From an uncultured Clostridia bacterium (GTDB lineage: Bacteria; Acidobacteriota; Aminicenantia; UBA2199), in the NCBI GenBank assembly GCA_964502145.1, contig CAZCVI010000002.1:117383-181382 (forward strand): a DNA stretch of 64,000 nt, in the 5' to 3' direction. Positions 26,962-56,200 of the stretch are shown piece by piece. A model generated the notes under the pieces. That model made no database searches. It was given only the letters and a program-made list of their open reading frames with translations, and had not been told where the DNA came from. Made by a program: the position numbers and the translations under genes. Position 1 is the stretch's first letter. The number at the start of each line of letters is the position of its first letter.

Positions 26962-27011
26962 ATTTAAAAACTCCTTTTTTTTAATCTGTATCATCATTTT
27001 AATCTGTGTAA

Positions 27012-30148: not shown

Positions 30149-30152
30149 CAAC

Positions 30153-31310: not shown

Positions 31311-31346
31311 TGGACGATATGGACAGTATGGACGATATGGACGATG
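31311..31346 (+). repeat. 9-bp tandem repeat, 4 units (TGGACGATA family)
   Basis: tggacgata tggacagta tggacgata tggacgatg. The same family occurs in inverse orientation at 37776-37811. Confidence 0.9.
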
Positions 31347-31358
31347 GGGATGGTGAAT

Positions 31359-32006: not shown

Positions 32007-32019
32007 CAGGGGGAATTTA

Positions 32020-32490
32020 TTACTCCTTTATAAAGGGTGGAAGTTCTTTATAACTCTTCTGGGTCAGAAAGAGACTGCTGTCATAGTAATATTTATCCGC
32101 TTCTTTAACGAGAATGATGACAAAAATTTCACCACCGACTTTTTTCACCATGCCAGCCATTCCGTCTTTACCTTCAAAGGTAGTCATCAGGCGGAACTCA
32201 GTGACGTCAATGATGTCCTTGGCATTGGCCTTGTATTTGGTAAAAATGCGATCCATATCGGCTGGGTTCTGGGAGATTATGGCTTGGTATTCACTCCGTT
32301 TTTCTTCGGGCATTAGCGCGATGATGGTGGTATAGTCACTGGTTTGGAGTGCTAAAAGGATTGCCTTGGTCACGGCATTGGGATCGGCTTGATCCACTTC
32401 GGCAGCCTGTAAAAGAGAATAAAAACCGTAAAATCCCAACGCCAAGAAGCATACAATATAAATACATCGGCTGGTTGCTTTAAGCATCAA
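32020..32490 (-). CDS. Hypothetical exported protein (156 aa)
   Basis: N-terminal signal-like hydrophobic segment CIYIVCFLALGFYGFYSLLQAAEV. No recognisable family. Confidence 0.55.
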   Translation of the reverse strand: MMLKATSRCIYIVCFLALGFYGFYSLLQAAEVDQADPNAVTKAILLALQTSDYTTIIALMPEEKRSEYQAIISQNPADMDRIFTKYKANAKDIIDVTEFRLMTTFEGKDGMAGMVKKVGGEIFVIILVKEADKYYYDSSLFLTQKSYKELPPFIKE

Positions 32491-32685
32491 ATCCTCCTAA
32501 AAGCTTTTATTCTTCATCTTCCACTGTTCTTGGCTTTCTCCTGCGATACTAACCGATTTTATAATATTATATCATACCAGCTTATTAAAAAAAAAACAAG
32601 TAGAAAAACAGCCTAAATTCACTGCCGTGTTAAAAAAAATTATGGTTTCGAGATTATGGCAGTGAATTTAGGCAGTAGAAAGTAT

Positions 32686-34866: not shown

Positions 34867-34935
34867 GGGAAATTCTCCTAATCTGTTTTGTTATTAAACG
34901 ACTAAATAAAAATTATTTTACCGGATTTGCTCGTA

Positions 34936-37242
34936 TTAGTCAATTGTTTGGTTATTGGGTTGGGCTTTTATTTCGAGGTAAAGACTCTGCAAAATATCCT
35001 TGATGATGCGGTAAAAAGAGAATGGAAAGACAAAGGTGCGGACATTATAGGCTTTGAATTCGGCGAATCCCTCGGATTTGTCTAAAAAGAGGTAGATGCG
35101 TTGGGGCAGGGTCAGGCCACGGAGAAGAAATTCGCGTAACATTTCGGGGTCGCAGAGCAGGATATCCATTTCTTTCATCTGGGGCTCGTTGTATACGACC
35201 ACTGTATCCAGTGTCGTTTCGGCTAGGGATTCGAGTAGTGCGGCGGTTAATTGCCGGTGGTGGAAATTTAATAGAATGCGTGGCGCGGTGGGCTCCAAAA
35301 ACTGGGAAAAGGGGATTTTATCCTGGTTTAACATTGCCTCGTTTCCGGGTACTTTCTTCTGGATAATAGGGGCCAGCATCTGGGCGATATGGGGGAACCG
35401 TGTGAAAAATCGCATCCAATCGCCCAGGTTGATGTGACTGCATGTAGTAAACGCATGGGCGAGATAGTCGTTGAGCAGTTCTTTTTTCATGACCAGTGTC
35501 ATGCGATGCTCGATGATGGCTCGTTCCAAGAGTTCAAAATCAAAGTCCTGGGATTGGATTAATCGTTTCAAGGCTGTGAACCCCTCTTCTATGCGCTTGA
35601 ATTCCAGGAACATATCATGGAAACTGGTTTTTATGCGTCGTAGTTCGCCTTTTTCCTGGGGGGTGAGGTTGGTTTCCCGTTTGGTTATAAAAAGGGACAA
35701 TGATTCGTTGATATTGTGGTAGGTGTCGATATCCAGGGTTTTTATGTATTTGAAGATGTTCAGAAACAGCAGGGTTAATTCGAGATTGTTGGCATTGATG
35801 ATCTTGGCAAACAATTTGGCAATGAACTCTTTGTCCTTAAAATTGAAGATCAGTTCCATGGGTATTATTTTTTCGATCAGTTGCAGGTATTTTTTGGTTT
35901 TGGAGACTGCCAGGTCTTCTACCACGATTTTTTCTAACAGGCGTTTGACTGTGGTTACTGGGAACAATTGGGATATGGTGTCAAAGTAGTCCTGGCCCAT
36001 AAAAAAGAATTCCCGTTCCCGTTCGGGGTCAAACAAGAGGTCTTTAACTTTAAACTCGTAATTCTCTTTTACTTTTGTCAGCAGTAGTTCTTTGAGGCGG
36101 TAGGTATCGGACAAAAAAATATTTTTGACCAATTCTACCAGATCGGGTACATCGTTATAGGGGAGGAAGCGCACAATGATGGCTTGGTCCTCGAAAGAAA
36201 GGGTAAAAAAGTGGTGGACAAAATAATCCAAGCCCTCTTTGAGGGAGAGGAGGGTACGGATGATTGATTCGTTAAGGGGTTCTTTTGCCCTGTAGAGGGT
36301 GAAAAGGAAGGGCGAGGCGACATCGTTTCCAGCCAGTTCTTCGATGATCGTGGGGCGTAGTTTTTCATCATCCGAATAGGTGGCTTCGATAAAGGAGATG
36401 ATTTCATCTTTTTTGCTTTTGCAGATCATGGCCAGTAGGAGTTGTCGCACGCGGATATCGCGGACATGGGCGAACTTTTCTTGTAAATTTCCAAGTTGTT
36501 CTTCCATGATAAATTGGTAGCGGGTGAGGTATTGTTTGAAATGATGGGTGAGCAGGTACAGTTCATCGCATTCTGGGGCGGTGATGCAGGGAATCTGGTG
36601 GAATCGGGTTTCGTAGAATCCTAAAATCTCGTTATCGTGGAAAATATCGCCGGTGATGCAGAGGATTTCAAAGGCGCCGTTTTGGATGAGTGGGTCCGGG
36701 CTGTTGAGGAATTTGGTGAACACGGTGACGTGTTCGGGGGTGAGGATACGTCGTAATATATCGAGGGCGATTTTAAAGGATTTGGGGTTCTTCTGGCCTT
36801 CCAGGAAACGGGGCATGAGGGCCAGGATGGGGTTATTTTCCTTGATGCGGCTGATTTCGGCGTTGATTGTGCTCAAGAGCATCGGATTATTTATCTTTTG
36901 CAGGGTTTGATTTAGAATGTTGAGGGCGGAGCGGTCGTTAAATTTTGAAACGGAGATGATCGCTTCTTGTTGGAGGCGGGAGTGTTGCACCGTGTCGATG
37001 ATTTTTTTCAAGGCAAACAGGAAGGATGGGCATCGCAGGTAACCGGCGACGCGGATAATTTCCATGCGTAAATCTGGGACCAGTGAGGAATCGTTTAACA
37101 GGCTGATCATTAATTCTTCGGCGGGCTTTTCGCCTTCTTTGACCAGGTTTTCAAGGGCCATGCGGAATTCCATTCCTTTGAATTGACTGGCATGGGTTAC
37201 AAGTGTTTTGATCTTTTCTAATATTGTATTTTTTTCGTCCAT
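34936..37242 (-). CDS. Hypothetical alpha-helical (HEAT/ARM-like repeat) protein, 769 aa
   Basis: The ATG at 37242 (MDEKNT...) is preferred over the TTG at 37266. The protein is helix-rich and has no catalytic motif I can recognise. It is divergent from the NRPS gene. Confidence 0.55.
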   Translation of the reverse strand: MDEKNTILEKIKTLVTHASQFKGMEFRMALENLVKEGEKPAEELMISLLNDSSLVPDLRMEIIRVAGYLRCPSFLFALKKIIDTVQHSRLQQEAIISVSKFNDRSALNILNQTLQKINNPMLLSTINAEISRIKENNPILALMPRFLEGQKNPKSFKIALDILRRILTPEHVTVFTKFLNSPDPLIQNGAFEILCITGDIFHDNEILGFYETRFHQIPCITAPECDELYLLTHHFKQYLTRYQFIMEEQLGNLQEKFAHVRDIRVRQLLLAMICKSKKDEIISFIEATYSDDEKLRPTIIEELAGNDVASPFLFTLYRAKEPLNESIIRTLLSLKEGLDYFVHHFFTLSFEDQAIIVRFLPYNDVPDLVELVKNIFLSDTYRLKELLLTKVKENYEFKVKDLLFDPEREREFFFMGQDYFDTISQLFPVTTVKRLLEKIVVEDLAVSKTKKYLQLIEKIIPMELIFNFKDKEFIAKLFAKIINANNLELTLLFLNIFKYIKTLDIDTYHNINESLSLFITKRETNLTPQEKGELRRIKTSFHDMFLEFKRIEEGFTALKRLIQSQDFDFELLERAIIEHRMTLVMKKELLNDYLAHAFTTCSHINLGDWMRFFTRFPHIAQMLAPIIQKKVPGNEAMLNQDKIPFSQFLEPTAPRILLNFHHRQLTAALLESLAETTLDTVVVYNEPQMKEMDILLCDPEMLREFLLRGLTLPQRIYLFLDKSEGFAEFKAYNVRTFVFPFSFYRIIKDILQSLYLEIKAQPNNQTID

Positions 37243-37371
37243 TGGTTTTATTATAGCAAAAATCAAATTGTTTTAGAATCATCTGGAAAAAATATAAATT
37301 CCTCTTAATTCGGAACTGTTCGGGTAAGATGATCGATGAGTACGATATTCATCGTGATTGCAGAAAACAAA

Positions 37372-37381
37372 GGGGGGGGGG
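37372..37381. repeat. Homopolymeric G10 tract in the divergent intergenic region
   Basis: The sequence reads aaaGGGGGGGGGGc. Confidence 0.9.
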
Positions 37382-37430
37382 CTTAAGTGGTGAAAATATG
37401 TTTCGTCCGTTGGGTTTTTGTAATTATTTA

Positions 37431-37550
37431 TAGAACTGTCTATCTTTTTGTAGAATTATCTATCTTTTTGTAGAATTTTCCTGTTTTTCGTAGAATTTTT
37501 TGGTTTTAGAGACAAATTTCTAATTTCAGTTACAATTTTTTAATAATTTT
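37431..37550 (+). repeat. 20-bp tandem repeat array (4 clear + 2 degenerate units; TAGAATTnTCTATCTTTTTG) upstream of the NRPS promoter
   Basis: tagaactgtctatctttttg / tagaattatctatctttttg / tagaattttcctgtttttcg / tagaattttttggttttaga / gacaaatttctaatttcagt / tacaattttttaataatttt. The embedded TTGTAG motif recurs at 37598, 37618, 37678, 37693 and 37725. Confidence 0.85.
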
Positions 37551-37775
37551 TAAAAAATTGCGGTTACAGGGACAATTTTTTAAAAATTCCTTGAAAATTG
37601 TAGTGGTGCGGAGAAAATTGTAGCCATGGGGACTTTTTTTTAAATATTTTTGAAAACATGCACCTACAGGTCCAATTTTGTAGGCAGGGAGTTTGTAGGC
37701 AGTGTTTACATATTTGGATGGCTATTGTAGATGCGACATCTTGTCGCATTGATAAAGGCATAAAGCAAAATAGAT

Positions 37776-37811
37776 ACGGTCCACTTAGTCCATATCGTCC
37801 ACATCGTCCAC
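37776..37811 (-). repeat. 9-bp tandem repeat, 4 units (GTGGACGAT family, inverse orientation of 31311-31346)
   Basis: The + strand reads acggtccac ttagtccat atcgtccac atcgtccac. Confidence 0.9.
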
Positions 37812-37858
37812 AACGATTTCAACAATGTGGCGGTGGATTTAGGAAAATAGTGAGGTGT

Positions 37859-37886
37859 TTGAAAAAATATTACTATGTGGTATAAT
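37859..37886 (+). promoter_or_regulatory. Near-consensus sigma70 promoter for the NRPS-PKS operon (TTGAAA-16-TATAAT, TG-extended -10)
   Basis: TTGAAA at 37859-37864 and tgtggTATAAT with TATAAT at 37881-37886. This predicts a ~180-nt 5' UTR before the ATG at 38071. Confidence 0.5.
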
Positions 37887-38070
37887 GCGTGTTGAATCAG
37901 ATTGCTATGATTCTGATATGAATCAGATTGAATTTCAAACACACACACATGTTGATAAGAAAAATGCGTGTCCCATAAGAGGCGGAAGCCTACCTAAATA
38001 TAGTGCCACTGTTTCCAGCACTATTTCAAAACCAATTTCCCAATAATTAAAGGTCTCTCCGGGTGATAAA

Positions 38071-41000
38071 ATGAGTCAATTAGAAAGAAAGAAAATTGCG
38101 GATATTCTGATGTTAACGCATTTGCAAGAAGGGATTCTATTTCACTATCTGCAAGAACCCAAAAGCGCGCAGTATTTTGAACAATTAAGCCTGGAAATCT
38201 CGGGGGAGATCAATCTGGAACTATTCAAAACCGCATGGCATACGGTCATCCAAACCAATGAGATGCTGCGCACTGTATTCCGCTGGGAAAAAATGGAGAA
38301 ACCAACCCAGATTATCTTAAAAGAACATACCTGCGACATCACTTTTTACGACCTGACAGATGAAGCGACAAACAGGCAAAAATCCCGGCTGCAAGAGATT
38401 AAAGACAAGGATAAACAAACACCCTTTGACTTGCAAGAAGTGCCCATGCGAATTATGTTGTGCAAGCTAGGGACACACGATTATGAAATGATCATCAGCA
38501 ACCACCATATCATCTATGATGGCTGGAGCAACGGGATCATTCTGAAGGAATTCTTCAGGGCATACTATGGGCTAAGCGCGGGAAAACCTGCGCTCCTCCC
38601 GGACAAACCCTCTTTCAAAGAATTTATCAAATGGCTTCAAAACGAGGATAAATACGAAAAGGATAAACAAAAAGCGTTTTGGCGCGATTATCTAGCAGGT
38701 TTAGACGGTCAGACGGAATTACCGCTAAAAAACATAAAAAATAGAAAAAACACTGGCTCCAAGCAGGTAGAACACTATTCACTGGTTCTTGAACCGGAGT
38801 TAAAAGAGAGGTTGGAGGCGTTTGCCAAAACCAAGCGGTTCACTTTGGCCGGGGTGTTCTACACTGTCTGGGGGTTATTGCTACACCAGTATTGCAACAG
38901 CCAGGATGTTCTGTTTGGCACAACTGTAGCCGGTCGTTCCGCACGGATAAAAGGCATAGAAGAGATGGTGGGGCTGTTTATCAATACGATTCCATTACGA
39001 ATCCAAACGACTCCTGGTGAAAAAATGGTGGCGGTGGTCAGCGGCGTGGATCACGCGTTACAGGCCCGTGAACTTTTTGAGAATACACCGTTGTTGGATA
39101 TCAGAAATTACAGTGGCTTGTCTGGTTATGTATCGCTGTTTGATACGTTGGTAGTGATTGAGAATTATCCATTGGATAGTCGTTTACTGCCCGAAGAAAG
39201 CGGGTTGTCAGTTCATGCTTTTACTATTGCTGAAATGACCCATTATGATTTAACCGTGGGCATTGTGCTTTTTAATGAGATAGCCGTCACGTTTTCCTAT
39301 AACCCGGAATTATTCGCCCAGGAAATGATTGCCCATTTGGCCGGGCATTTTTTGTCTCTGGTACAGATGATTATAGAAAACGGCGAACAGGACATTTGCG
39401 CCATAGAAATAATCTCCCCTGAAGAAAAGCACCGCGTATTATATGAATTTAATAATACCGCCGCAGAATACCCATCAAACAAAACGATTCCCCAATTATT
39501 CATGGAACAATCCGCCCGGACCCCAGACTACATCGCCCTTATCTGGGAAAAAAGCGGGGCGTGCCATATATCCTATGCCGAATTAAATGAACTATCCAAC
39601 CGTCTGGCCTATTGGTTGCAAACAGAAGGCATTAGGCCCGATACTATCGTGGCTATAATGGTAAATCGTTCCATTGAAATGATTGTGGGCCTCATGGGTA
39701 TTTTAAAAGCCGGTGCCGCCTATTTACCGATTAACCCGGAATACCCGGCTGAACGAATTCAATTTATGCTGCAAGACAGCACCGCAAAAATCGTGCTCAC
39801 CGAACCAATCATCCAAGCAACCACTTCCCATATTCCCATTCCTCCCATAATTCCCATAATTCCCATTCCTCCCATAACTCCCAGTAATTTAGCCTATGTA
39901 ATATACACTTCCGGCACCACCGGCAAACCCAAAGGCGTTTTAGTAGAACATCAAAATGCCGTTAATGTGGTGTGCTGGTTAGGGCGAAAATATCAATTAA
40001 ACCCCGATACCCATATTATCTTGATGTCCGATTATACCTTTGATGCCAGTATTGATCAAATCTTCGGTGCCTTGTTGCATGGTGCCTCTCTTTATATCGC
40101 CAGTAAAGAGTTCATGTTGGATATGGATGCTTTACGCCATTACATCAATAAAAATCGGATCAATTTTATTAATTTTGTGCCGCTAGTGCTCAATGAATTG
40201 CTGGGCTATCGGGAGAAATTGCCCAGCTTAAACACCGTGATTTCCGGTGCAGAGCGGTTGGACGATACTATCAAAGATAATATCCTGAAGCGCGGCTATC
40301 ATTTATATAATCATTATGGTCCCACAGAAACCACGGTGGAGACACTGGTCTTCACTTGTACAGACGCTCCAGTTTACCTGGGGAAACCCATAGCCAATAC
40401 AAAAATTTATATACTTGATCAATGGGAACATATCGTTCCAATCGGCGTACCTGGAGAATTGTATATTGCCGGGGCCGGATTGGCCAGGGGGTATTTGAAC
40501 CGGTCCGATTTAACGGCGGAGAAATTCGTGGCCACACCCCATGGTGTAGAGAATGACCCTGTATCTCGAACCTATCGAACCGGGGACCTGGGGTGTTGGC
40601 TGCCCGATGGAAATATTGCGTTTCTGGGACGCATTGATCAGCAGGTTAAGATCCGGGGGTTCCGTGTTGAACTGGGAGAAATCGAAGCACAATTGCGCAC
40701 TTTCCCGGAAATAAAGCAGGTCGTGGTGAGCGCAAAAGAAGATAACCGTGGTGATAAAACGCTTTGTGCCTATATTGTATCCCGGCAGCTTTCTACAGGC
40801 CCCACTGCCCCCCTTGACCCAGCCGTGCTAACCACCTATTTAGCCGGTATCTTACCCGATTACATGATTCCCGCCTATTATGTCCAGTTGGCAGAAATTC
40901 CCCTGTTGCCCAATGGCAAAGTGGACCGCAAGAACTTGCCTGAGCCTGTTTTTATTGCCACCCAAGCATACCAGGAACCACGGCATGAACTGGATCGCAG

Positions 41001-41230
41001 ATTGCAAACGATATGGACGAGCGTTTTATTTGGAAACGTGCTTTCAGAAGATTCATCCGCACCACCACCTAAACCCATCGGGATTGATGATAATTTCTTT
41101 CATATGGGCGGACACTCCCTGAAGATCATGAATATGGCAGCTAAAATTCACAAGGAGTTGAACCTGGAAATACCAGTGCAAGAACTATTCACCCATCCCA
41201 CTATCCGGGTTTTGGCCAATTATATAAACA
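38071..41230 (+). other. Module 1: C (HHIIYDGWS at ~38503) - A (A3 motif ~39889-39939) - T (Ser 41116-41118)
   Basis: Motifs were read from the translation. My hand-extracted specificity code is D-A-D-N-I-G-H-V-E-K, which I cannot assign. Confidence 0.8.
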
Positions 41231-44200
41231 CGCGGGAACACACTAAAAATATCACTAAAAATAACTTTGCAGAGATCGCCGCTATTGAAGTAAAAGAATA
41301 CTATCCACTCTCTTCGGCCCAGAAAAGAGTTTATATTTTATACCTCATGGAAACCGATAGCATCAATTACAACATGCACGAGGTATTCCGCCTGGAAGGG
41401 GAACTGGACGTGGGCCGCTTGGAAAAAAGCTTTACCCAATTGATTCGCAGACACGAAAGCTTAAGAACTTCCTTTTTCTTACTCCATGATGAACCGGTCC
41501 AGAAGATTGTGGCCGCCAGTGATGTACCATTCGCCAGCGAATTTTTTGATCCAAACGAAAAAGACACCCTGGTCGAACCTGCCCTAAACGACACCGCGTT
41601 AATGGAAAATACCACTGTTTATGACATCAACCAGCGTTTTTTAAGACCCTTTGATTTGACTCAAGCGCCCCTGTTCCGCGTCGGGCTTATTAAAATCGCC
41701 AAGAACAGCCATATCTTGATGGCAGGAATGCACCATATTATTTCCGATGGCATATCAATTGACCTATTTATCACTGATTTTGTCGCCCTCTACCGTGGCC
41801 AGAACTTACCCCCCTTGCCCATTCAATACAAAGAGTATGCCCACTGGCAGCACCAGAAAAAAGCGCAGGGCGCCTTTAATAGCCAACGCTCCTACTGGTT
41901 GCATGAATTTGCCGGTGAGCTTCCCGTATTAACCATGCCCTATGATTTCCCCAGGCCAGCCGTGCAGAGTTTTGCCGGCGACAAATATTATTTTAACCTC
42001 CCCGCATACGAAACCAAAACGTTAATAAAACGGTGCCAGGAAGAAGCGGTGACTCTTTTTATGATGCTCAGCGCTATCTATTATGTGATGCTGTGGAAAC
42101 TGAGCGGTGCCGAAGAGATCGTGGTGGGAAGCCCCACGGCTGGACGCAGACACGCTGATCTGGAATCCATTTTAGGAATGTTTGTCAACACCCTGGCAGT
42201 AAAAACCAGCCCTGCCAAGGAAACACGCTTCAAACCCTTTTTGGCACAAGTCAAACAAAAGAACCTGGCAGCTTTTGAAAACCAGGAGTACCAATTTGAT
42301 GATCTGGTGGAGGAACTATTACCCGCACGGGATTTAGGTCGCAACCCGTTATTCGACATGATGTTCATCTTGCAAAATATGACCGGCACAACTAACACGG
42401 CGATAAATATTCCGGGCTTAAAAATAACCCGCCTTCCTTTTGAAACGCATATCGCGCCTTTTGATTTTTACCTCATGGCTGAAGAACGACAGGAGTCTAT
42501 CTATTTTACCGTGGGTTATTGCACCAAATTGTTTACGCTGGAAACCGTGCGTCGGTTCATGGGGTATTACCGAGAAATTCTGGCCACAGTGGTCACCCAA
42601 CCCGAGGTGGAACTGGCACGTATAGACATATTATCCCCGGCAGAGAAACGCCAATTAGTGCAGGAATTTAATAATACCCAACGACCGTACCCACAGGGTC
42701 AAACCATTCCGCAATGGTTTGCAGAGCAGGCCGCACGAACCCCAGAAGCCATTGCCGTGGTAGGGGAGGGGGTCATCACCTATCGGGAATTAAATCAACG
42801 GGCCAATCAATTGGCCCACCTGTTGCGACAAAAAGGAGTGGCCCCAGATACCATTGTTGCCCTCTTTATGTTTCGTTCTATCCAGATGGTTGTTGGTATC
42901 CTCGGCATATTAAAAGCGGGCGGCGCTTATTTGCCGATCAACCCCGTGTATCCTGGGCAACGTGTGTTGTCTATCCTGGAAGATAGCGGTGGCAATTATT
43001 TTATAAGCGATGAAAAAACATCCCGCCCTCTTTCTTTTACCGGTTTACAGCGTTTGGATGTGCCCGAAGTGACGCCCCTGGTTACAGCCAAACGACCCCA
43101 GATCACAAATTTTGATAGCTTGCCCCATCCCGATCGTACATTGATTGATTACAGCAAATATCATCGTTATATTGGTATTGCACCCGCCAAATACACCGTC
43201 AGTATCCAGGCCACTCGCGGCTGCCCGTATCAATGTGCCTACTGCCATAAAATATGGCCCAAAACACATGTCATGCGGCGGGCTGAAGATATATTCGCCG
43301 AGATTAGCGCCTGCTATCAGGCGGGGGTGAAACGATTTGTATTTATCGACGATGTCTTCAACCTCAATAAAAAGAACAGCGGCCAATTATTTCAAACCCT
43401 GATCGACCACCACTATGATGTGCAGCTCTTTTTTCCCAACGGGTTACGCGGCGATATCCTGACCCCCGATTTTATTGACCTCATGATTGAAGCAGGCACT
43501 GTTAATATTGATCTGGCCCTGGAAACGGCCTCGCCCCGCTTGCAGAAACTGATCAATAAACAATTGAACCTGGAAAAATTCGCGGCCAACGTCCATTATA
43601 TCACCCAGAAACATCCCCATGTCGTGTTGGAGATGGAGATGATGATTGGCTTTCCCACGGAAACGGAAGCGGAAGCTTTACAAACCCTGGAATTATTGCA
43701 GAGTTTTAAATGGGTCCATTTCCCCAACCTGAATATCCTCAAAATTTATCCCAATACTGACATGGCCCAACTGGCAATTGAAAACGGGGTCAGTCGTAAA
43801 TTGATTCATTCCTCCACCACCCTTGCATTCCATGAGTTGCCAGAAACACTCCCTTTTTCAAAAGATTTTGTCCGGGAGTATCAGGCACGCTTTACCAACC
43901 AGTATTTTCTTTCCCAGGAACGGTTGCGCCATGTATTAAAACAGCAGGTCAAGAGCTTCACCGCCGATGAGCTCGTGCAAAAGTACGACAGTTATTTACC
44001 CGTGGAGATCAAGTCTTTTGCCGATATTCTCAAGTGTGCTGACATCTCCAGCGCTGCATTGGGGCCCATTGAATTTATTCCCGAAGCCCGCTTTGCCGCT
44101 CCCGATTTTAACCAGCGGATCAAGGCTTTTTTCCCCTCCCGCCCCAGCTCGGAAAATGCTTTTCGTCTCTTGTTTCTTGACCTGTCGCAATCCTTTCGCG

Positions 44201-47200
44201 CCGATATGGGCCATACCCTTTACGATGTCGGAGCCGAACCCTTGGGGTTGATGTATCTCGCCTCCTATCTCCAAGAACAACTCGGCCCACACGTTCGGGT
44301 CAAAGTGTTGAAGTCGCGCATTGATTTTGATAGTTATGCCCAATTGCAAGAACAGATCACGTTGTTCCAGCCCCATTTAATTGGTCTGCGCACCCTATCC
44401 TTGTACAAGGATTTTTTTCATCGCACTGTTTCCCTGTTGCGGCAATGGGGCATTACCGCGCCTATTATTGCTGGTGGACCCTATGCCACCAGCGATTACA
44501 AACAAATGCTCCAGGACCCACACATCCATCTCGCCGTGCTGGGAGAAGGAGAAGCCACTACCCTCCATCTGGTTAAAGAGATGATGACCAAAAACAATAC
44601 CTGGCCCGCCGACGACGTATTGGAAACCATTCCCGGTCTCGCCTTTATTCGCCAATCAGAGCGAATGTTAACCACCGCCCCCCAGCGGCAGGTGCTCTTG
44701 TTGGACCAGATTTCTGGTCCATTGGCCCACTTTCCCACCACCAATCCCCAGAACGTCAATCACCCCGGTGATTTGCTATATTTGATCTCCACTTCCGGGT
44801 CTACCGGGAAACCCAAGAGCGTGATGGTCGAGCATCGCACCCTGGTTAATTTGCTGCATTTTCAATTCCATCATACAGCCATCCATTTTTCCCGTGTCTT
44901 GCAATTTGCCGCCATCGGGTTTGATGTCTCCGTGCAAGAGATTTTTTCTGCCTTACTCGCCGGTGGCACTTTATATCTTCCTGACGAAGATATGAAAAGC
45001 GATGTGCCCCGGTTGTTCCAGTTTATCCAGCAGAACCAGATCGAAATTCTGTTTCTGCCTCCTGCATTTTTGAATTTTGTTTTTTCTGACCCCGACTATA
45101 TCCCATTATTTCCCGACTGTGTGCGCCATATTATAGCTGCTGGCGAACAATTGATCGTGAACGAGGCGTTACGATTGTTCCTGAAGCAGCGGCACGTGTA
45201 TCTCCATAATCATTATGGCCCCTCTGAGACCCATGTTGTCACCACCTTGACCATGGATCCCACCCAGGAAATCCCCCATTTCCCCGGTATTGGCAGCCCC
45301 GTATCCAACACCGGCATTTATATCTTGGATAGCCAAAGCAATCTTTTGCCCCTGGGTGTTAGCGGCGAATTAAACATTGGCGGTATCCAGGTCGGGCGTG
45401 GTTATTTGGGTAATGTGGCGTTGACTGCCGAGAAGTTTGTGCCGAATCCCTTTGTCCCCGGTGATCGCTTGTATCGCACCGGTGATATGGCCCGATGGTG
45501 GTCAAATGGGAGTATTCAGTTCTTGGGACGCTTGGATTTCCAGATCAAAATCAGGGGTTTTCGTATTGAACCCGGTGAAATCGAGGGACAATTAAAAAAA
45601 CACCCGGATATTAAAGAAACAATTGTCCTGGCTCTGGCAGATAATAAGGGCGAGCTCTATCTGGTGGCTTATGTAGTGTTACAGCCGCAGACTACCATGC
45701 CCCTCTTACGGGAATTTTTATTGAACCGATTGCCGGATTATATGGTTCCCGCCCATTTTATCCCTCTGGCACGAATTCCCTTGAACGCCAGCGGGAAAGT
45801 CGACCGTCATGCGTTACCACCACCGGAAAATACACCGGGAAACGGGCATGTAGCACCACGGGACCCCATGGAAAAAAAATTGGCCGCTATCTGGTGTACC
45901 GTGTTGGGGAAAGATGTTGCCCAAGATACAGTCAGTATTGATGATAATTTTTTTCAAATGGGTGGGCACTCCTTAAAAGCCACCGCCCTCACCTCCAGGC
46001 TAGCCAAAGAGTTTCATGTTAAAGTGCCCCTCGTGGAGATTTTTAAAGAGCCCACCATCCGGGGCCTTTCCGGTTATATTGCCCATTCTATGGTGGAGCA
46101 ATACGCTGGCATAACTCCTGTAGAAGAGCAGGAATACTACCCCTTATCGTCAGCGCAGAAACGATTGCACTTTTTACAACAAATGGATAAAGCGGGAACC
46201 ACCTATCATCTGACTAGTAACTGGCTGTTGGAAGGTGTTGTCGCTAAAAACCACCTGGAACAATCGCTGCTAAAACTGCTACAACGCCATGAGAGTTTAC
46301 GCACTTCCTTTGATATCATAGCCGAAGAACCCGTGCAAATCATCCACCCGAAATTAGCATTTGTTATTGAAGATGAACATGCTACCATGGATTCTTTCCT
46401 GCGTCCATTTGCATTATCACATGCCCCGTTGCTGCGCGTCGGATTGGTAAAAATAGCAGCCGAAAAGTTTCTCTTACTCGTGGATATGCATCATATTATT
46501 TCCGATGGGTTGTCCATGGATATTCTGAGCCGTGAATTCACCGCTCTTTTGGCAGGCGTAGAACTCCCCCCATTACGTCTCCAATACAAGGATTATGCCG
46601 CGTGGCAGAGTTCTGAAAAAGAGAGCCCCCACTTCCGTCAACAAGAATTATTTTGGCAGCAAGAGTTTAGCGGCGCCATACCCGTGCTCGATTTGCCCGT
46701 TGATTATAGCAGACCACCCGTTCAAAGTTTCGCCGGGGCATCACTTCCTTTTGCCCTATCTCGTGATAGCGTTGTTTCCTTGCAAGCCATAGCAGTAGAA
46801 GCCAGTGCCACAATGTACATGGTGCTGCTCACATGTTATACTATCTTTTTAGCTAAAATGAGCAACCAGGAAGATATTGTCATTGGCACACCCATTGCCG
46901 GTCGCAGGCATGCAGACCTGGAGAAAATTATCGGGATGTTTGTCAACACATTGGTGTTGCGGAACTATCCGGTAGCGGAGAAAAAATTCAGCGATTTCCT
47001 GGCTGAGGTCAAAGAGAGAACATTAAAAGCATTTGAAAACCAGGAGTACCCGTATGAAGATTTGGTAGACAAAGTCACGATCACCCGTGACGTCTGTCGC
47101 AATCCCTTATTTGATACCATGTTTGTATTGCAAAATGCCACCCCACCACCCGTGGACATTCCCGGCTTAAAAATAGCGCCCGTGCCGCAGGAAAACAAAA

Positions 47201-50200
47201 CCGCCAAATTTGATCTGACTCTAACAGCAGTGGAAACCCCGGAAAAAATAGAATTGAACTTCGAGTACTGTACTAAATTATTTAAAAAGGAATCCATCCA
47301 CCGGTTTATCACCTATTTTACCAATATCATCGACTCCGTTCTGGCAGACCCCTTCATTGTCTTGGGTCAGATTCCCCTGCTCTCCCCAGCACAACGAGAG
47401 CAACTGCTGGTGGAGATCAACGCACCCGCCATCCGCTATCCTAATTTCAAGACCATTCAGGGTTTATTCGCCGAGCAGGTCAAAAAAACGCCGGATCGGC
47501 CAGCACTAACCGGTATCAGGTATGATCAAGCAGAAACTCACCTGACTTACCGGCAATTGGACCAGCTTTCCCGACAGTTGGCCCACCAGTTAACGGGTAG
47601 GGGATTGGGTCCTAACAAGCGAGCAGCCATAATGGTAGGCCGAAACGTGGAAATGATTATTGCCATTCTTGGAATTATTCAGGCCGGGGCCGCGTATGTT
47701 CCCTTGGACCCCCAGGCCCCTGTCGAACGATTGCACTATGTATTGGCTGATTGTGGCGCAGAATTATTATTAACCTTCCGCCCATTGGCTGCACGATTGG
47801 CTCCCGCCATAGATACACTTTACCTGGAAGAGTTTACCACCCTCCCTGCCACCCCTCCCGATGCCGTTCTCTCCGGTCATCCTGATGATCTCGCCTATAT
47901 TATATATACATCCGGCTCAACCGGTAGGCCCAAAGGTGTTCCTATTTGCCACCGCAATGTATCGCCCTTATTGTTTTGGGGGTATCGGTACTTAGGGATT
48001 TGTCGTCTAGATCGTGTTATCCAGAGTCCCTCCTATTATTTCGACTGGTCTGTCTGGGAGATATTTATTACCCTTACCAGCGGGGCCCATTTGGTAATGA
48101 TTAGCGAGGAGCTTGTACTTGATCCCCCGGCGTTGGTGGAATTTATCCGGCAGCACGCCATTACCACCCTGCACATCACCCCCACCCAGTTAAGTTATCT
48201 CGTGAATAGCAGACGCCCTATGCTCTCGTTGCACCATCTCTGTATTGGCGCCGAGAAATTAACCTATGATCTTGTAGCCCGTGCTCTTCCCCTGCTTGCA
48301 ACCGATTGCCGGATTTACAATATGTACGGTCCCACCGAAGCCACCATCATTTCCGCTGTGGCCGAGATTGACCGTGAGCAAATTCCGTTCTATCTCAAAC
48401 TGCCCAGTATCCCTATTGGTCACACCATCGCCAATACCACCCTGTTCGTATTGGATCATTCTATGAACCCCTGTCCCATCCATGTTGTTGGTGAACTGTA
48501 CATTGCCGGGGATGCCTTGGCCCGTGGTTATCTCAATGATCCAGAAAAGACCGTAGCCAGTTTCGTCACCAATCCCTTTGCCGAGATTTGCGGTCCCTAC
48601 CTCTACAAAACCGGTGATCGCGTTCGTCGCCTGGAGGATGGCAGCATTCTCTTTTTAGGTCGCGCCGATGATCAGGTAAAAATACGCGGCTATCGCATCG
48701 AGTTGGGGGAAATTGAGAACTGGCTGCTACACTATCCACACGTCAAAGATGCTCTCGTGCTGGTCAAAGCGGATCATCTACAGGAGAAATATTTATGTGC
48801 CTATGTGGCGTGTCCCATTGAATTGGATACCGCCGAATTAAGGGATTTCCTCGCCGCCAGACTTCCCGCCTATATGATCCCCGCCCATTTTATCACGCTT
48901 GAACATATGCCCCTCAACCCCAATGGCAAAGTCGATAAAAAACGCCTGCCCCTCCCTGAAATGCAAACAAGCCCACAAGTCGTCGCCCCCAAAAACGATC
49001 TGGAAAAAACCATCCTCTCTATCTGGCAAGACGTACTTGGACTCGACCACGTAGGCACCACGGATAATTATTTTGAACGGGGTGGCAATTCCATGAATAT
49101 CGTTAAAGTCAGTCACCGTTTAAAAAGTGTATTGAACCGCGATATCCCCGTGATGGACCTGTTCCGTTACCCCACCATCAAAACCCTGGCCGCTTACCTC
49201 AACCAGAGCCCCGGCCATGTCCCTTTCACCCCGTCGGAGATAGGGGAGTCCCTCCTACTTAATCAACCCGAAATACCCCGACATGAGAGTGTTTCTACCA
49301 CTCCCGCGATTGCCGTGATTGGTATGGCCGGAAGGTTGCCCGGTGCGAACACTATTTCCGCATTCTGGAACAATCTCAAGCATGGTGTCGAATCCATTGC
49401 TTTTTTCTCCCCCGCAGAATTCGCAGACAACGGGGGTGATCCCCGGTCCGTGAACCTGCCCAATTATGTTAAAACCCGCTGTGACTTGCAAGATATCCAG
49501 TATTTTGACAGTTCATTTTTTGGGTACACCCCCGTGGAAGCCGAAATAATAGACCCCCAGATGCGCCTATTTCATGAATGTGTCTGGGAAGCTTTTGAAG
49601 ATGCCGGTTATGAGTCCGGTTCTTATGCCGGTCGTATCGGGCTTTATTCCGGTGGGGAATCCAGTTCTTTCTGGGAAACATTAACCTCTTTATCCCAGAT
49701 TGGTCAGTTGATGAATCCCTTGATTCTGGGCAATTTAAATAATAAAGATTACCTCAGTTCCCGTATTGCCTATAAATTTAATTTACGCGGGCCATCCGTC
49801 ACCATGAACACCGCTTGTTCCACCTCACTTGTCGCCATTCATTTTGCTGTTCAGGGTTTGCTCAACCGCGAGTGTGAGATCGCCCTGGCCGGTGGCGTGC
49901 GGGTCATGCTGCCCGGAAAAACCGGCTATCTCTATCAAGAGGGTATGATTCAATCCCCAGATGGTCATTGCCGTGCCTTTGATGCCAGGGCCAATGGCAC
50001 CGTGGGTGGCGATGGCGTCGGTGTTGTAGTCTTAAAAACTCTGGCACGGGCCCAGGTGGATGGCGATCATATTTATGCTGTCATCAAAGGTTCTGCCATT
50101 AATAATGATGGTATTGGCAAAGTAGGTTACCATGCCCCCAGCATCAATGGTCAGGCTGCCGCCATTCGCGCCGCGTGTGCCAATGCTGCCATTGATCCCG

Positions 50201-53200
50201 GTAGTATCGGTTATATTGAAACCCATGGGACCGGCACCCAGTTGGGGGACACCGTGGAGATAGAGGCATTAAAACTCGTTTTTAACGCCCTCGTCTTGCC
50301 CCAGCATAAAAATACCTGCGCTATCGGGTCAGTCAAAACCAATTTTGGTCACCTGGGCAGTGCCGCCGGGGTGGCTGGATTCATTAAGACCGTATTGACC
50401 TTAAAACACCGCCTCATTCCACCCAGCTTGCACTTTGAACGCCCCAACCCGAAGATTGATTTTGAAAACAGCCCCTTTTACGTCAACACCCAATTAACCC
50501 CGTGGCCCTCCACCCTTCTTCCCGCGCGGGCCAGTGTCAGTTCCTTTGGCATAGGCGGCACCAACGCCCATATTATTTTGGAAGCCGTGGCCCCTACCAG
50601 CCCCGCATTCCCCGCCAGCGCCCGTCCCGATCAATTGCTATTATTATCCGCCCGCACCCCCGCTGCCCTGCACACCATGTCCGTCAATCTGCTGGAGTAT
50701 TTAAAAGAAAACCCGGTGCTTTCCCTGGCCGATGTGGCCTACACCTTGCAAGTGGGCAGAAAGCGTATGGCAATCAGGAGAAAGCTGGTATGTTCCACTT
50801 CCGCCCAGGTGATTGACCAGCTTGCTGCTTCCGGGCCCGCCCATGTCGGCGCTTACACCGCCTTGGTCGCCGATGAAGATAGGAAAGTTATATTTATGTT
50901 CCCTGGTCTTGGTGCGCAGCACGTTAATATGGGGCGCGGGCTTTATCACACCGAACCCATCTTCCGCGATGTGATGGACCGTTGTTTTGCTATATTAAAA
51001 GACCTGTACCCCGTGGACATAAAAGAAATTCTGTACCCTGCCGGGGAAATCTCGCCGGCATCAAACAGCCAATTCCACTCCTTTGAAGTCGAGCAACTCG
51101 TGTTGTTTGTGTTTGAATATGCCTTGGCCAGACTCATTTTGTCGTGGGGCATTCAGCCCCATGCCATGATCGGTTACAGTTTTGGCGAGTATGTGGCCGC
51201 CTGTTTAGCCGGGGTGTTTCGCTTGCAGGATATCTTAAAGTTGCTGGTCGTCCGTGGGCGGCTCATTTCCCAGCTTCCCGCCGGTGCCATGTTAAGTGTT
51301 CCCCTGCCAGTGGAAGCCGTGCAGCCTTTTCTTCCCGCCGAATTATCCATCGCCATAGACAACCGTTCCTCCTGCGTAGTTTCCGGGCCCGCCCAGGCCG
51401 TGGCTTCCTTTGCTCAGCAGATGAAAGCCAAGAAGCTCTTGTGTCCGCCCTTTGAATCCCCCTTTGCCGCGCATTCGTCGCAGTTGGACCCCATATTGGC
51501 GGAGTTTCACAAGGAAGTCGCTACAATTTCCCTCCAGACCCCGCAAATACCCTATATTTCAACCTGTACTGGCACATGGATCACTGTTGCCGACGCGCAG
51601 TCCCCAGAGTATTGGGTCAAACAACTCAGGTCCACCGTTTATTTTGTCCGCGGTATTCATCAGATTATAGAAGGGGTCTCCCCGGTATTTCTAGAAATGG
51701 GCCCCGGACGCGACATGAGTGCCCTGGTGAACCGTGAGATCACCGCTAAAACCGGCATACAGACCATGAACCTCCTCCGTCATCGCGGTTCCTTAAAAGA
51801 GCGCACCGATGAAGATTACTTGCTGGATAAAATCGGTCGCTTATGGTTGTATGGCGTGAATATAGACTGGCAAGCCTATCATTCCGGCCAGAGACGAAGT
51901 CGTCTCTCATTGCCTACCTATCCCTTTGAGAAAAAGCGGGCCTGGAAAATTATGGAAAATTATCACGCCGGTCAATATTCCTATCTACCCGGCGCCCCCG
52001 GTGCGCCAGAGAGTTCGCACCCGGCCCAAGGAACACCTCTGGCAGAAACACCGGGTGATCATTGGACACAAGAGCCCCCCCATCTCGAATGGAATGCTAG
52101 GCCGCAACTTTCCACCTCATATGTCGCTCCCCGCGATGAGGTGCAACAAGTCCTGCTTGATATCTGGCAGCATTTTTTTGGTATTCAAGAGATCGGTATC
52201 ACCGATGATTTTTTTGAATTGGGTGGCGATTCATTAAAAGCCACCACCCTGTTATCCACCCTGCACAAGGAAGCCAATATACTCGTCCCCCTCACTTATT
52301 TCTTCGATAATCCTACCATTGAAAAAATCGCCGCTTATGCCATAACCAGTGAAAATGACGCAGACCCAGGCGAAAAAGAGTTCCATGCCATCCAACTTTT
52401 GGAACAGAAAGAGTATTACCCCCTCTCTTCCGCGCAAAAGCGCATGACCTTTTTTCAGCAGTTGGACCAGACCAGTATCGGATACAACCTGGTGCTGGCA
52501 AACACCATCCAGGGCAATCTGGATACCCTAAAACTGGCCGCCATATTCACCAAACTAAGCGCACGGCACGAGATTTTGCGTACCTCTATTGAAGAGATAC
52601 AGGGTGAAACCGTCCAAAGAATTCATCCACATATTGCTGCCACACTGATCACCGGTCATGGAGAGTCCCCCGAAGTATTTATCGCCCAGTTCATCCGTCC
52701 CTTTGATTTAGCCCGTGCCCCCCTCATGCGGGTCGGGTTGTTGTCTATGGCCGAGCAGCAGTATTTATTAATCGTCGACATGCATCATATCATCTCTGAT
52801 GGCACGTCATTGGCCGTATTGATCGGAGAGTTTTTGGCTCTGTATCAGGAAAAAGAGTTGCCTGTTCTGTTGTTGCAGTATAAAGATTACGCTGTCTGGC
52901 AGAACCAGGAAATGGCCGGTGGGTTGTTTGTTTCGCAGCGGGATTACTGGATAAAGACATTTGCCGGTGAAGTTCCCGTGCTTGAATTGCCTTATGATTG
53001 TATCAGGCCGTTGGATCGCACCTATGCTGGCGATCTGTTGGCCTTTGAAATTGATCGTGCAGAGACTTCGGCGTTAAATCATTTCGCCAGTCAGCAGGGG
53101 GTCACATTGTACATGGTGTTGCTCTGCTTAACCACTATCCTTTTAGCCAAGTTAAGTGGTCAGGAAACCGTGGTCGTAGGAACTCCCATTGCCGGTCGTA

Positions 53201-56200
53201 CCCATGCGGACCTGGGCCGGATTATCGGCATGTTTGTCAATACCCTGGCCATGAAGAATGAACCCAATGGCCAAAAAACTATCCAGGAATTTTTAAAGGA
53301 AGTCAAAGAAAACACCTTGAGTGCTTTTGCCAACCAGAACTACCAGTATGAAGAACTGGTCGAGCACCTGCCCATAGATCGCAGTCTAGGCCATAACCCC
53401 TTGTTTGACACCCTGTTGGTCTTGCAAAACATGGCTCTGCCCAATATCAATATTCCCGAATTGACCTTAACACCCTATCCGTATCATACCGGTTTGGTAA
53501 ATTTTGATTTGACTTTCCTGTGTGTTGAAACCCCAGCTACCCTCTCGTTCACCCTTGAATACAGTACAGAACTCTTTAAAAAAGAAACCGCCCAACGCTT
53601 TATCGGTTTTTTCAAAAAGATATTAACCACCGTATTGGCGCACCCCGAAGGAAAAATATCCCAGATCGAGATAATATCCCAGCCAGAAAAAACCCAGATT
53701 TTATATGATTTCAACAACACCACCGTTACATACCCGGCCAACCAAACCCTTCCCCAATTATTTTCCGACCAAGCCGCACGAACCCCAGACCATATCGCCA
53801 TTATTGGTCCCACCCTGGCTCTAACCCACTGCCAATTAACCTACTCCCAATTAAACGAAGCATCCAATCGCCTCGCCCATTGGTTACTTTCCACTGGCGT
53901 CCGTCCCAATACCATCGTCGCCATCATGATCGAACGTTCCATTGAATTGATCATCGGCATTATCGGCATATTAGAATCCGGTGCCGCCTATCTTCCCATC
54001 GATCCCCAATACCCCGAGGAGCGAAAACAATATATACTAGCAGACAGCAATACAACCCTCATCCTAACCCAACACTCCATCCAACAAGCCATTCCCATCA
54101 CTCCCATCACTCCCAACACTCCCATAATTCCCATACTTCCCATCACTCCCATAAATCTCGCCTATATCATCTACACTTCCGGTTCCACCGGCAGACCCAA
54201 GGGCGTCATGGTAGACCATCACAGCATCGCCAACACCTTGTATTACCGCTGCCAGGAATATCGTATCGTGCCCAGTGATCGTGTACTCCAATTGTTTTCC
54301 TTTGCTTTTGATGGATTTCTCACCTCTTGTTTTACCCCCCTGCTTTCTGGCGCATCTGTCGTGCAGTTAAGCCAGGAGGACATAAAAGATATCTTCCGTA
54401 TCAAAGAGATGATTGTCGCCCAACGAATCACCCACTTTATCGCTGTCCCGTCCCTGTACCGCTCTTTATTGGAAGTCGCCACTGCCCTTGAGTTATCCCA
54501 CCTAAAAATCGTAACCCTTGCCGGTGAGCAGGTGCCCCCCGACCTCGTGGTAAAAAGTAAGTCTTTAAACCCCTTGTTGGAATTGGTCAATGAGTACGGT
54601 CCCACCGAGAGCAGTGTCCTGACCTCCATACACAGAAACCTCGAACCCGGTGCCATTATTTCCATCGGTAAACCCATAGCCAATACCCGGATTTATATTC
54701 TTGATCAAGATGATCATGTTGCCCCCATCGGGTTACCCGGTCAACTCGTTATATCTGGTCTTGGTTTGGCCCGCGGGTATCTCAATAATCCCCAACTCAC
54801 CGCCGCTACATTTTTCTCTTTAGCCCATTCAGCCACCTTCGCCACCCTCTCACCAAAACTCTATAAGAGCGGTGATTTGGCCCGCTGGTTGCCAGATGGA
54901 AACATAGAGTTCCTCGGTCGCATTGATCAGCAGGTTAAAATCCGTGGCTTCCGTATTGAATTGGGCGAGATCGAAAACCAACTGCTTCGCCATCCCCAGA
55001 TCAAAGAGGCAGTAGTGGATGTTAGAACCGAAAACAGCGGCGATCACTATTTATGCGCTTATATTGTCACCCAGGGCGAATGGGACATCTCCCAGGCAAG
55101 AGAATATCTGGCCAAGACCTTACCCGATTACATGATTCCCGCGCATTTTGTCGCCTTGGAGAAAATCCCCTTGTCCCCCACTGGCAAGATTCTACGTTCA
55201 GCCTTACCCCAACCGCAATTAAAAAGCGCGGCCCAGTACGTGCCCCCCCGCAATGACATAGAACAACAATTGGTAGAGATATGGACCGAGATTTTGGGCA
55301 GTGATCCATTGTTTGCCTCTTTTTTACATCCCTCTATAGGCATTGATGATAACTTTTTCCATCTCGGTGGGCACTCCTTAAAAGCCATGACCATGGTCAC
55401 CAAGCTCCATAAAGCCCTAAATGTTAAAGTGCCCTTGGTGGAAGTCTTTAAAACCTTGACCATCAGGAAACTGGCCGCCTATATTTTAGGTTTAAAAAAA
55501 GAGTTATACACCGCCATCCAACCCGCTGAAACCAGAGAGTATTATGACTTATCCTCTGCCCAGCGCCGGTTTTATATCTTGCAGCAAATGGAGCTGGACA
55601 GTTTTGCCTACAACAATTTTTCCGTCATGGTTTTGGACGGATTATTTGATAAAGAGAAATTTGGCCACGCGTTAAACCAATTGATCGCCAGACATGACAG
55701 TTTAAGAACCTCTTTTGAATTAATCGGAGGTGAACCTTTCCAAAAGATACATCAACAAGTAGTCGCGGAAATCGCTTATTTTGATTTCACCCCTCCCGGA
55801 AAAAGTCAGCTCTTAGAATCCACCATCCAACATTTTAACCGTCCTTTTGATTTATCTCATGCCCCCTTGCTCAGGTTCGGCATTATTCTCGTGGAGCAGC
55901 AAAAATCCTTGTTGCTGTTAAGCCTCCACCATATCATCAGTGACGGCACATCCATCGGCACCTTTATGAACGAGTTAATTTATTTATACCTGGGCCGAGA
56001 ACTCCCACCCCTGCGATTGCAATATCACGATTTCTCCCAGTGGCAAAAAAACCTCCTGGTTTCCGGGGCATTAAAGACCCAGGAAGAATACTGGTTAAAA
56101 GTTTTTGCCGGGGAACTGCCCGTTCTTGAAATGCCCACCGATTACCCCAGACCAGCCGTGCAAAGTTTTGCCGGTCACAGTATCGATTTCTTTCTGGAGG

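Follow-up and report, generated by a model that had tools for sequence, protein, structure and literature searches.

The adenylation (A) domains of nonribosomal peptide synthetases (NRPSs) can be interrupted by a second catalytic domain at three recognised sites, which lie between core motifs a2 and a3, a6 and a7, or a8 and a9 (PMC8341866), and TioN (thiocoraline) and MarQ (maremycin) are examples in which a side-chain methyltransferase sits at a2-a3 (PMC11355689). A 2020 catalogue of bacterial interrupted A domains comprises seven families, all with methyltransferase (M) domain inserts, and the words 'radical', 'B12' and 'cobalamin' appear nowhere in it (PMC8341866), while a 2024 review names only M, oxidase (Ox) and ketoreductase (KR) inserts (PMC11355689). 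Among the cobalamin-dependent, or class-B, radical S-adenosylmethionine (SAM) enzymes, PoyB/PoyC, EreB and DscE methylate unactivated side-chain carbons of many residue types (PMC12858407; PMC9259500), DscE doing so on a nonribosomal peptide (PMC12858407), and the methylases CysS (cystobactamid) and ThnK/TokK (carbapenems) accept pantetheine-linked substrates (PMC8950095). A 2025 paper describes a separate radical SAM C-methyltransferase gene in an NRPS cluster as 'an unusual enzyme combination' (PMC12858407). Here we analyse a stretch of 64,000 nucleotides (hereafter the window) from an uncultured Clostridia bacterium (assembly GCA_964502145.1, contig CAZCVI010000002.1, positions 117,383 to 181,382 of the forward strand), in which the second A domain of a large synthetase is interrupted at a2-a3 by a class-B-type radical SAM unit. 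This had been claimed in an initial annotation of the window made from the sequence alone, and Pfam matches above threshold bear it out. The annotation's further remark that it knew of no described radical SAM insert agrees with our search, since no description of a radical SAM domain inside an NRPS was found in the open-access PMC and bioRxiv literature, where a report in a subscription journal would be missed.

The synthetase, of mixed NRPS and polyketide synthase (PKS) type, is encoded by a single unbroken frame of 6272 amino acids (aa) spanning 18.8 kb of the plus strand. Its layout and the parts of module 2 are as follows, where C, T, KS and AT denote condensation, thiolation, ketosynthase and acyltransferase domains and rSAM the radical SAM domain.

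38071..56889, plus strand: whole synthetase, C-A-T-C-A(rSAM/B12)-T-C-A-T-KS-AT-T-C-A-T-C (Pfam and local domain map)
41293..42660, plus strand: C2, the condensation domain of module 2, aa 1075-1530 (Pfam PF00668 matches best over 1075-1530)
42718..43017, plus strand: N-terminal part of the second A domain, cores a1-a2, aa 1550-1649 (AMP-binding profile positions 1-98, E 5.5e-28)
42910-42945, plus strand: A2 core LKAGGAYLPINP, aa 1614-1625 (motif)
43018..43071, plus strand: A-domain-derived lead-in, aa 1650-1667, '..SFTGLQRL..' (kept in embedded homologues only; boundary approximate)
43072..44670, plus strand: inserted radical SAM, helical and B12 unit, about aa 1668-2200 (colinear with ~550-aa stand-alone homologues, 45-57% identity)
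43111..43161, plus strand: N-terminal 'LPxPDR' segment FDSLPHPDRTLIDYSKY (aligns to AprD4 residues 165-190)
43207..43698, plus strand: Radical SAM core with CxxxCxxC, aa 1713-1876 (Pfam Radical_SAM)
43222..43245, plus strand: [4Fe-4S] ligand motif CPYQCAYC, Cys 1718/1722/1725 (the three Cys invariant in 85 aligned sequences)
43768..44160, plus strand: helical bridge from the radical SAM barrel to the B12 domain, aa 1900-2030 (kept in 120/120 homologues; helical in the model)
44236..44568, plus strand: cobalamin-binding-type Rossmann domain, aa 2056-2166, in which GGP and GEGE are invariant (Pfam B12-binding)
44671..44760, plus strand: strand and loop, derived from the A domain, that lead back to a3, aa 2201-2230, 'VLLLDQISGPLAHFP...' (without counterpart in stand-alone homologues)
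44761..45840, plus strand: C-terminal part of the second A domain, cores a3-a10, aa 2231-2590, code DVQFIAHVVK (Pfam AMP-binding 161-384 and AMP-binding_C)
45856..46110, plus strand: thiolation (carrier) domain T2, aa 2596-2680 (Pfam PP-binding at 2603-2670)

The insertion site lies between the A2 core and the A3 core (HPGDLLYLISTSGSTGKPK, aa 2231-2249), that is, at the recognised a2-a3 position, and A-domain cores flank the foreign segment inside one reading frame, which is the mark of an interrupted A domain. The C-terminal piece takes up the AMP-binding profile at position 161 and follows it to 384 (E 1.7e-41) before running into AMP-binding_C. The inserted domain is none of the M, KR, Ox or monooxygenase types, matching Radical_SAM and B12-binding in their place. 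The two A halves are separated by 581 aa (aa 1650-2230), in keeping with the roughly 580 foreign residues that the initial annotation had counted up to an exact resumption at A3, but the foreign folded part makes up about 530 of these and the flanks belong to the A domain itself. The annotation had also read 'VLLLDQISGPLAHFP' as a second copy of a radical SAM linker. This did not survive comparison with homologues: the segment is the A domain's own strand before a3, because it is absent from stand-alone homologues, which stop before it, is kept in embedded homologues in the conserved form 'REILLLDE', and is paralleled by 'TLYLEEFTTLPATPP...HPDDLAY' in the uninterrupted third A domain of the same synthetase. 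T2 is presumed to present the substrate. Downstream, a second megasynthase open reading frame (ORF; 56892-64000, plus strand, >2372 aa) opens with the acyltransferase-like motif FVFPGIGSLW, and since it starts at about 56892 and runs past the window end, the assembly line continues beyond the window. The first synthetase terminates in a C domain.

Within the insert, both Pfam matches are far beyond chance and exceed their gathering cut-offs, Radical_SAM with 59.2 bits against 29.5 (E 7e-16) and B12-binding with 42.5 bits against 32.1 (E 7e-11), so that the profile check suggested in the initial annotation came out in its favour. The motifs it had quoted are all in place, among them ATRGCPYQCAYCHK at aa 1714-1727 in the cluster region, IIAGGPYATSD at aa 2132-2142 and VLGEGEATTLHLV at aa 2156-2168, and the N-terminal 'LPxPDR' segment, which it had taken for a class-B linker, does match what comes after the N-terminal domain of AprD4; the counterpart of this segment in canonical class-B enzymes is found behind the B12 domain. 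The two hallmarks of class B, a CxxxCxxC motif in a partial TIM (triosephosphate isomerase) barrel and a B12-binding Rossmann domain, are both present, whereas the canonical order with the B12 domain N-terminal is reversed. The reversal shows in the alignments, in which sequential structure aligners matched a single domain each time. The radical SAM part aligns to positions ~160-400 of canonical class-B NCBIfam profiles and the C-terminal part to positions 17-177 of the KedN5 profile, in its N-terminal region, and in a profile search of the PDB insert positions 13-245 fall on AprD4 residues 165-396, positions 437-509 on TokK residues 65-138, and positions 429-529 on CysS residues 56-151. The reversed order had been noticed in the initial annotation, where it was said to fit a circular permutation. 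It is a trait of the whole family and did not arise through the insertion: the order of radical SAM, bridge and B12 domain is colinear in 120/120 of the closest homologues, stand-alone ~550-aa proteins included. By sequence comparison the unit is therefore a class-B-type radical SAM enzyme whose B12 domain has shifted to the C-terminus, behind a conserved helical bridge. The insert alone is modelled by AlphaFold2 as a confident fold (predicted local distance difference test score, pLDDT, 90.6; predicted template modelling score, pTM, 0.89), and across 85 sequences that are 45-57% identical to it the cluster Cys, GGP, GEGE and ~35 further columns are invariant. All of its NCBIfam matches are to class-B radical SAM families (BchE, ApyD, PhpK, BzaD, KedN5 and others).

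The surrounding A domain appears to be intact and of proline type. Positional mapping onto GrsA numbering recovered the specificity code DVQFIAHVVK that the initial annotation had extracted by hand, and this is close to the Stachelhaus code for proline, DVQLIAHVVK. The top single-domain PDB matches of the C-terminal half were the proline-activating TycB module 1 (TycB1; 446 bits) and GrsB1, whose A core scored 326 bits over 254 aa, compared with 283 bits for TycA (tyrocidine synthase 1) and 279 bits for GrsA, both of which are phenylalanine-activating. As far as sequence can tell, the assignment of the module 2 A domain as proline-type holds. In an AlphaFold2 model of the A(insert)-T region, an alignment that bridges the insert places both A halves on the A core of GrsB1, with a template modelling (TM) score of 0.70 (target-normalised) over 918 columns, so the two halves are predicted to reassemble into one normal proline-type A core, which was the outcome looked for when the initial annotation proposed a structure prediction.

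The interrupted A domain of the window belongs to a widespread family. A search with the insert gave 1015 matches at E <= 1e-5, and colinearity and architecture were mapped by placing window segments on the best 120 of these, which are 43-57% identical to the insert. A scan of GTDB with one genome per species yielded 70 loci, and ~60 modules in these genomes have the arrangement C-A_N-[rSAM-B12]-A_C-T, in which A_N and A_C are the two A-domain pieces. They come from Aminicenantes, Deferrimicrobium, Halanaerobiales, Clostridia, Bacteroidales, Omnitrophota and Desulfobacterota, with Clostridium puniceum DSM 2619 and Desulfosediminicola flagellatus IMCC35005 as cultured carriers and more than 15 copies in one Aminicenantes metagenome-assembled genome. 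In 44/56 modules, and likewise in the window, 103 aa separate the A2 core from CxxxCxxC, while GEGE and the A3 core stand 74-90 aa apart, with 83 aa for the window. An exhaustive hidden Markov model search, run against 1.84 billion representatives, brought up 5662 proteins with E <= 1e-30; architectures and codes were counted in the best 150 of these (50%-identity representatives), which are all full-length matches above 855 bits and nearly all megasynthases of 1000-7500 aa. The insert lies at a2-a3 in 129/151 cases among these 150 proteins, six of which (P0121-P0126) carry two inserts. Other A-embedded radical SAM units, for which the initial annotation had suggested a search, are thus numerous in both surveys.

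Besides the interrupted A domain, the best 120 matches include ~550-aa stand-alone proteins (dozens), ~725-aa proteins with a vestigial A_N fragment, and the arrangements A_N-insert-C, A_N-insert-T and A(full)-insert-T-C. The stand-alone homologues are located between NRPS or PKS genes, and one occurs in the cultured [Clostridium] polysaccharolyticum DSM 1801. Many of them (P0014, P0016, P0025, P0027, P0033 and others such as L004 10001-13456) end in FNDDLEDE or FNDDLENE, an acidic tail that may be a docking motif for the synthetase, and tandem pairs are frequent. The ~725-aa proteins, of which two are encoded in tandem in Aminicenantes GCA_050049735.1 (L005 7769-12172) and also at L006, have a ~50-aa tail ending in DYDF. 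We considered that they might be halves of a split A domain and rejected this, because the next gene holds its own complete A domain. Their appearance is that of embedded units which have been set free to work in trans. Alternative placements were also seen, the unit standing after an early part of A_C in one case (L014 15951-21716) and, in several others (L024, L028, L046, L048, L049), between a complete A domain and T. A single-module C-A(rSAM/B12)-T-C protein of ~1870 aa recurs beside genes for ~570-aa B12-first radical SAM proteins (L035, L043, L049, L051, L076 and others) that are distant relatives of the C-methyltransferases of RiPPs (peptides made by the ribosome and then modified post-translationally), and one of these neighbours (L076 14492-16210) matches the PhpK P-methyltransferase family with 636 bits against a cut-off of 600.

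To relate inserts to substrates, we translated specificity codes into amino acids by published code tables. The 64 interrupted modules from genomes comprise ~24 Thr, ~13 Pro and ~9 Glu/Gln codes, with small numbers for Leu, Ile, Val and Asx, and the 134 interrupted modules from the exhaustive search comprise 23 Thr, 16 Ile, 15 Glx, 9 Leu, 9 Asx, 6 Pro and 5 Val codes together with 50 others, Lys-like and Tyr-like ones included. The link to proline that the initial annotation drew is therefore sound for the module in the window but does not extend to the family, in which Thr, Ile, Glu/Gln, Leu, Asx, Val and Lys-like modules also occur. Within this range, insert and A domain vary together. The nine inserts nearest to that of the window (56-67% identity, several phyla) all lie in Pro-coded A domains, the nearest-neighbour insert has the same predicted substrate in 21/22 Thr-coded and 12/14 Pro-coded modules, and in the junction sequences the residues just upstream of the cluster loop read IG[IE]AP[AV]K in Pro-coded modules as against IGQAMVK in others. 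Insert clades follow A-domain specificity, and this co-variation speaks for an action of the insert on whichever residue the A domain around it loads. Gly-coded modules make up 0/134 of the interrupted and 7/118 of the plain modules in the same proteins of the exhaustive search (Fisher p = 0.0045), and the lack of any Gly-coded module with an insert fits a target in the side chain and not in the backbone. The insertion site points the same way, since TioN and MarQ have their side-chain methyltransferases at a2-a3 too (PMC11355689). The specificity codes beside trans-acting homologues gave no pattern.

We consider it very likely that the insert is a functional radical tailoring domain working in cis. 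As to what it does, we lean towards cobalamin-dependent radical C-methylation of the side chain, by which module 2 would give C-methylproline. In this scheme the A halves would fold into a normal A core that activates L-proline and loads it on the adjacent T2, and the ~530-aa unit would form an autonomous enzyme in the a2-a3 surface loop, with its radical SAM barrel, helical bridge and C-terminal cobalamin-binding Rossmann domain. This enzyme would act in cis, its substrate being the prolyl (or nascent peptidyl) thioester that phosphopantetheine tethers. Its [4Fe-4S] cluster would cleave SAM to a 5'-deoxyadenosyl radical, which would abstract a hydrogen at an unactivated side-chain carbon. Most likely the substrate radical would then be methylated from methylcobalamin, with a second SAM serving to regenerate that cofactor, and the product would be a C-methylproline residue. 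We infer the action on a tethered substrate, the binding of cobalamin, the methyl transfer and the carbon that is modified.

C-methylation is favoured because TokK and CysS have B12 domains similar to that of the insert, because there are precedents for pantetheine-linked substrates, and because DscE, PoyB/PoyC and EreB methylate residues of many types. CysS structures with a pantetheinylated substrate are among the structure matches, and one of the bottromycin methyltransferases (BotRMTs) methylates proline at the beta carbon. Host clusters are rich in further canonical class-B radical SAM genes, and these, together with a RiPP C-methyltransferase gene in the window, make cobalamin-dependent radical SAM chemistry likely in the organism. 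The step from enzyme class to C-methylation, which the initial annotation had taken, is reasonable, and we would call the identification of the insert's chemistry as C-methylation evenly balanced. Several observations weigh against it. Nothing computed here separates methylation from other radical chemistry; the best match of the radical SAM half, by sequence and by structure, is the diol dehydratase AprD4, which is not a methylase and whose B12-like domain is not known to bind cobalamin; and cobalamin binding by the insert cannot be read from its sequence. Every curated NCBIfam match is far under its cut-off, and the non-methylases BchE, BzaD and HpnJ are among them. With regard to the wider scheme, the C-terminal third of the A(insert)-T model is of low confidence because the alignment is shallow there (residues 1-840 are confident), and the depletion of glycine codes is non-significant in the smaller set of modules (0/64 against 5/139), the two sets partly overlapping.

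The alternative that fares best is that the insert performs radical SAM tailoring in cis without methyl transfer, such as an AprD4-like dehydration or elimination, a desaturation, a ring contraction or rearrangement, or the formation of a C-C or C-heteroatom bond. It is a serious rival because the closest relative of the radical SAM half is a dehydratase; threonine, a 1,2-amino alcohol, is also the most frequent predicted substrate, the sub-threshold NCBIfam scores leave room for it, and the class includes non-methylases such as OxsB and BchE (PMC8950095). The broad range of predicted substrates (Ile, Leu, Val, Pro, Glx, Asx and Lys-like) is nevertheless easier to square with a generic C-H methylation than with chemistry requiring a particular functional group, and the nearest B12 domains are those of two methylases, TokK and CysS. 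Methylases also make up most of the characterised class-B enzymes, and on balance we regard a non-methylating reaction as possible but rather unlikely.

Far less probable is that the insert is a radical SAM epimerase like PoyD or YydG, which would yield a D-residue in place of an epimerisation (E) domain, although radical SAM peptide epimerases are known (PMC9259500) and most interrupted modules are without an E domain. A canonical E domain (HHxxxDG, EGHGRE, FNYLG) is present alongside the insert in at least five modules, the C domains downstream of interrupted modules fall in with those behind ordinary modules in 29/29 cases, the window's included, and with the six C domains that follow E domains in 0/29, and Gly-coded modules are the only obvious gap in the substrate range, which again directs attention to the side chain. 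Radical SAM epimerases are also not known to have a B12 domain. By these sequence comparisons epimerisation is disfavoured.

Some interrupted A domains have inactive inserts, and the unit might accordingly be a decayed or structural relic without catalysis, or the A domain might be inactive and the module skipped. Nothing specific speaks for this apart from the existence of the ~725-aa proteins in which a vestigial A_N fragment is fused to a radical SAM unit, and we think it highly improbable, since the catalytic motifs of both enzymes are all intact, neither the cluster Cys nor the B12-domain motifs vary among the 85 sequences at ~50% identity, and the architecture is kept in several phyla.

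An assembly chimera, or a frameshift that joined separate genes, would be conceivable for a metagenome contig such as this one, which is Ga0207193_1000010 of JGI metagenome 3300020048, and a scan of metagenome contigs for the exact 118-nt junction pattern gave no match (an uninformative outcome, as the source contig itself was also missed), but we give this explanation practically no credence, given a single open frame of 18.8 kb with even composition (insert GC 0.491 and third-position GC 0.566, matching the flanks and the entire ORF, with no Ns), a separate assembly (ENA ERZ27262927; the contig is 182,958 bp long and was found via a neighbouring gene) that is 100% identical without gaps over 5.2 kb (window 42000-47200) across both junctions, and equal junction spacing in >50 independent genomes, one of them a complete chromosome. 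As the second assembly is identical and the same fusion recurs in many unrelated genomes, the arrangement is not an artefact, and misassembly or frameshift at the junctions, which the initial annotation had wished to see checked, is ruled out by the uniform composition, the second assembly and the conserved spacing.

Other genes of the window contain further radical SAM proteins. A RiPP-type cluster on the plus strand (12079-16820), separate from the synthetase, begins with the C-methyltransferase mentioned above (12079-13923), a canonical B12-first radical SAM protein of 614 aa that matches TIGR03975 with 437 bits against a cut-off of 282. It is followed by a 754-aa fusion of a thiazole/oxazole-modified microcin (TOMM) leader-binding domain with a YcaO cyclodehydratase, in which TIGR03882 and TIGR03604 are both above cut-off, and by a 165-aa ORF without matches. 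At 27814-29202 (plus strand) a gene with a TTG start encodes a radical SAM protein of 462 aa whose Pfam SPASM domain (aa 22-85) precedes Radical_SAM (aa 113-247), the reverse of the usual order; it is called as 452 aa in two assemblies, with equal domain order. Between these, 17061-22337 (plus strand) encodes a 1758-aa protein that combines Ser/Thr kinase, STAND/AAA_16 ATPase, GAF and SpoIIE phosphatase domains. At window positions 24000-38000, over a block of minus-strand genes, the GC skew has strongly positive values (0.2-0.27), and it becomes negative across the plus-strand synthetase genes.

Looking beyond the window, we slightly favour the view that the unit represents a large class of assembly-line domain for radical C-H functionalisation of carrier-tethered amino acids in anaerobes. 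If true, the class would act in the a2-a3 loop, between A and T, or in trans as ~550-aa proteins, and anaerobes among the Aminicenantes, Clostridia, Halanaerobiales, Desulfobacterota, Bacteroidales and Omnitrophota would use it on many residue types in place of oxygen-dependent tailoring. The functionalisation of unactivated C-H bonds would then join the assembly line itself, a hidden chemical space of C-alkylated nonribosomal peptides could exist, and product-prediction tools that ignore the insert would miss a modification in many anaerobe clusters. The co-variation described above would supply matched pairs of substrate and radical enzyme, from which substrate choice in class B could be learned and C-methylated residues engineered. 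The family is testable in cultured carriers, namely C. puniceum DSM 2619, D. flagellatus IMCC35005 and, for the trans form, [Clostridium] polysaccharolyticum DSM 1801.

Compared with characterised enzymes, both building blocks of the system are of known kinds and it is their combination that apparently forms a large, uncharacterised family across phyla. The radical SAM half is most like AprD4, the apramycin 1,2-diol dehydratase (76.8 bits; Foldseek E 2e-12 at 24% identity; an 'LPxRxL' lead-in), which differs in having its B12-like domain at the N-terminus and in being a free-standing aminoglycoside dehydratase. A characterised precedent for the rSAM-first order is Mmp10, the methyl-coenzyme M reductase Arg C-methyltransferase, in which the radical SAM domain is N-terminal and the cobalamin domain C-terminal (PMC8950095). 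Membership of an Mmp10-type group was considered for the insert and rejected, as homology to Mmp10 was not found for both domains. Unlike the insert, CysS, ThnK and TokK are free-standing enzymes that act in trans, have an N-terminal B12 domain and share ~15-19% similarity with it per domain. PoyB/PoyC, EreB, DscE and the BotRMTs parallel its proposed role through cobalamin-dependent radical SAM methylation (of Val, Ile, Gln, Ala and Pro), but they are separate proteins of canonical order that work on finished or leader-bound peptides. Every described A-domain insert is an ordinary methyltransferase, ketoreductase or oxidase, and a radical insert would be a new kind. As with the synthetase in the window, TioN and MarQ each have, within a single ORF, an otherwise complete A domain whose a2-a3 loop houses a catalytic domain, and their inserts modify the side chain of the loaded residue after tethering (PMC11355689; PMC8341866). 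Those inserts are class-I (Rossmann) SAM methyltransferases of ~350-400 aa that carry out polar S-, O- or N-methylation, whereas the insert in the window would, as read from its sequence, be an oxygen-sensitive radical enzyme of ~530 aa with two cofactors.

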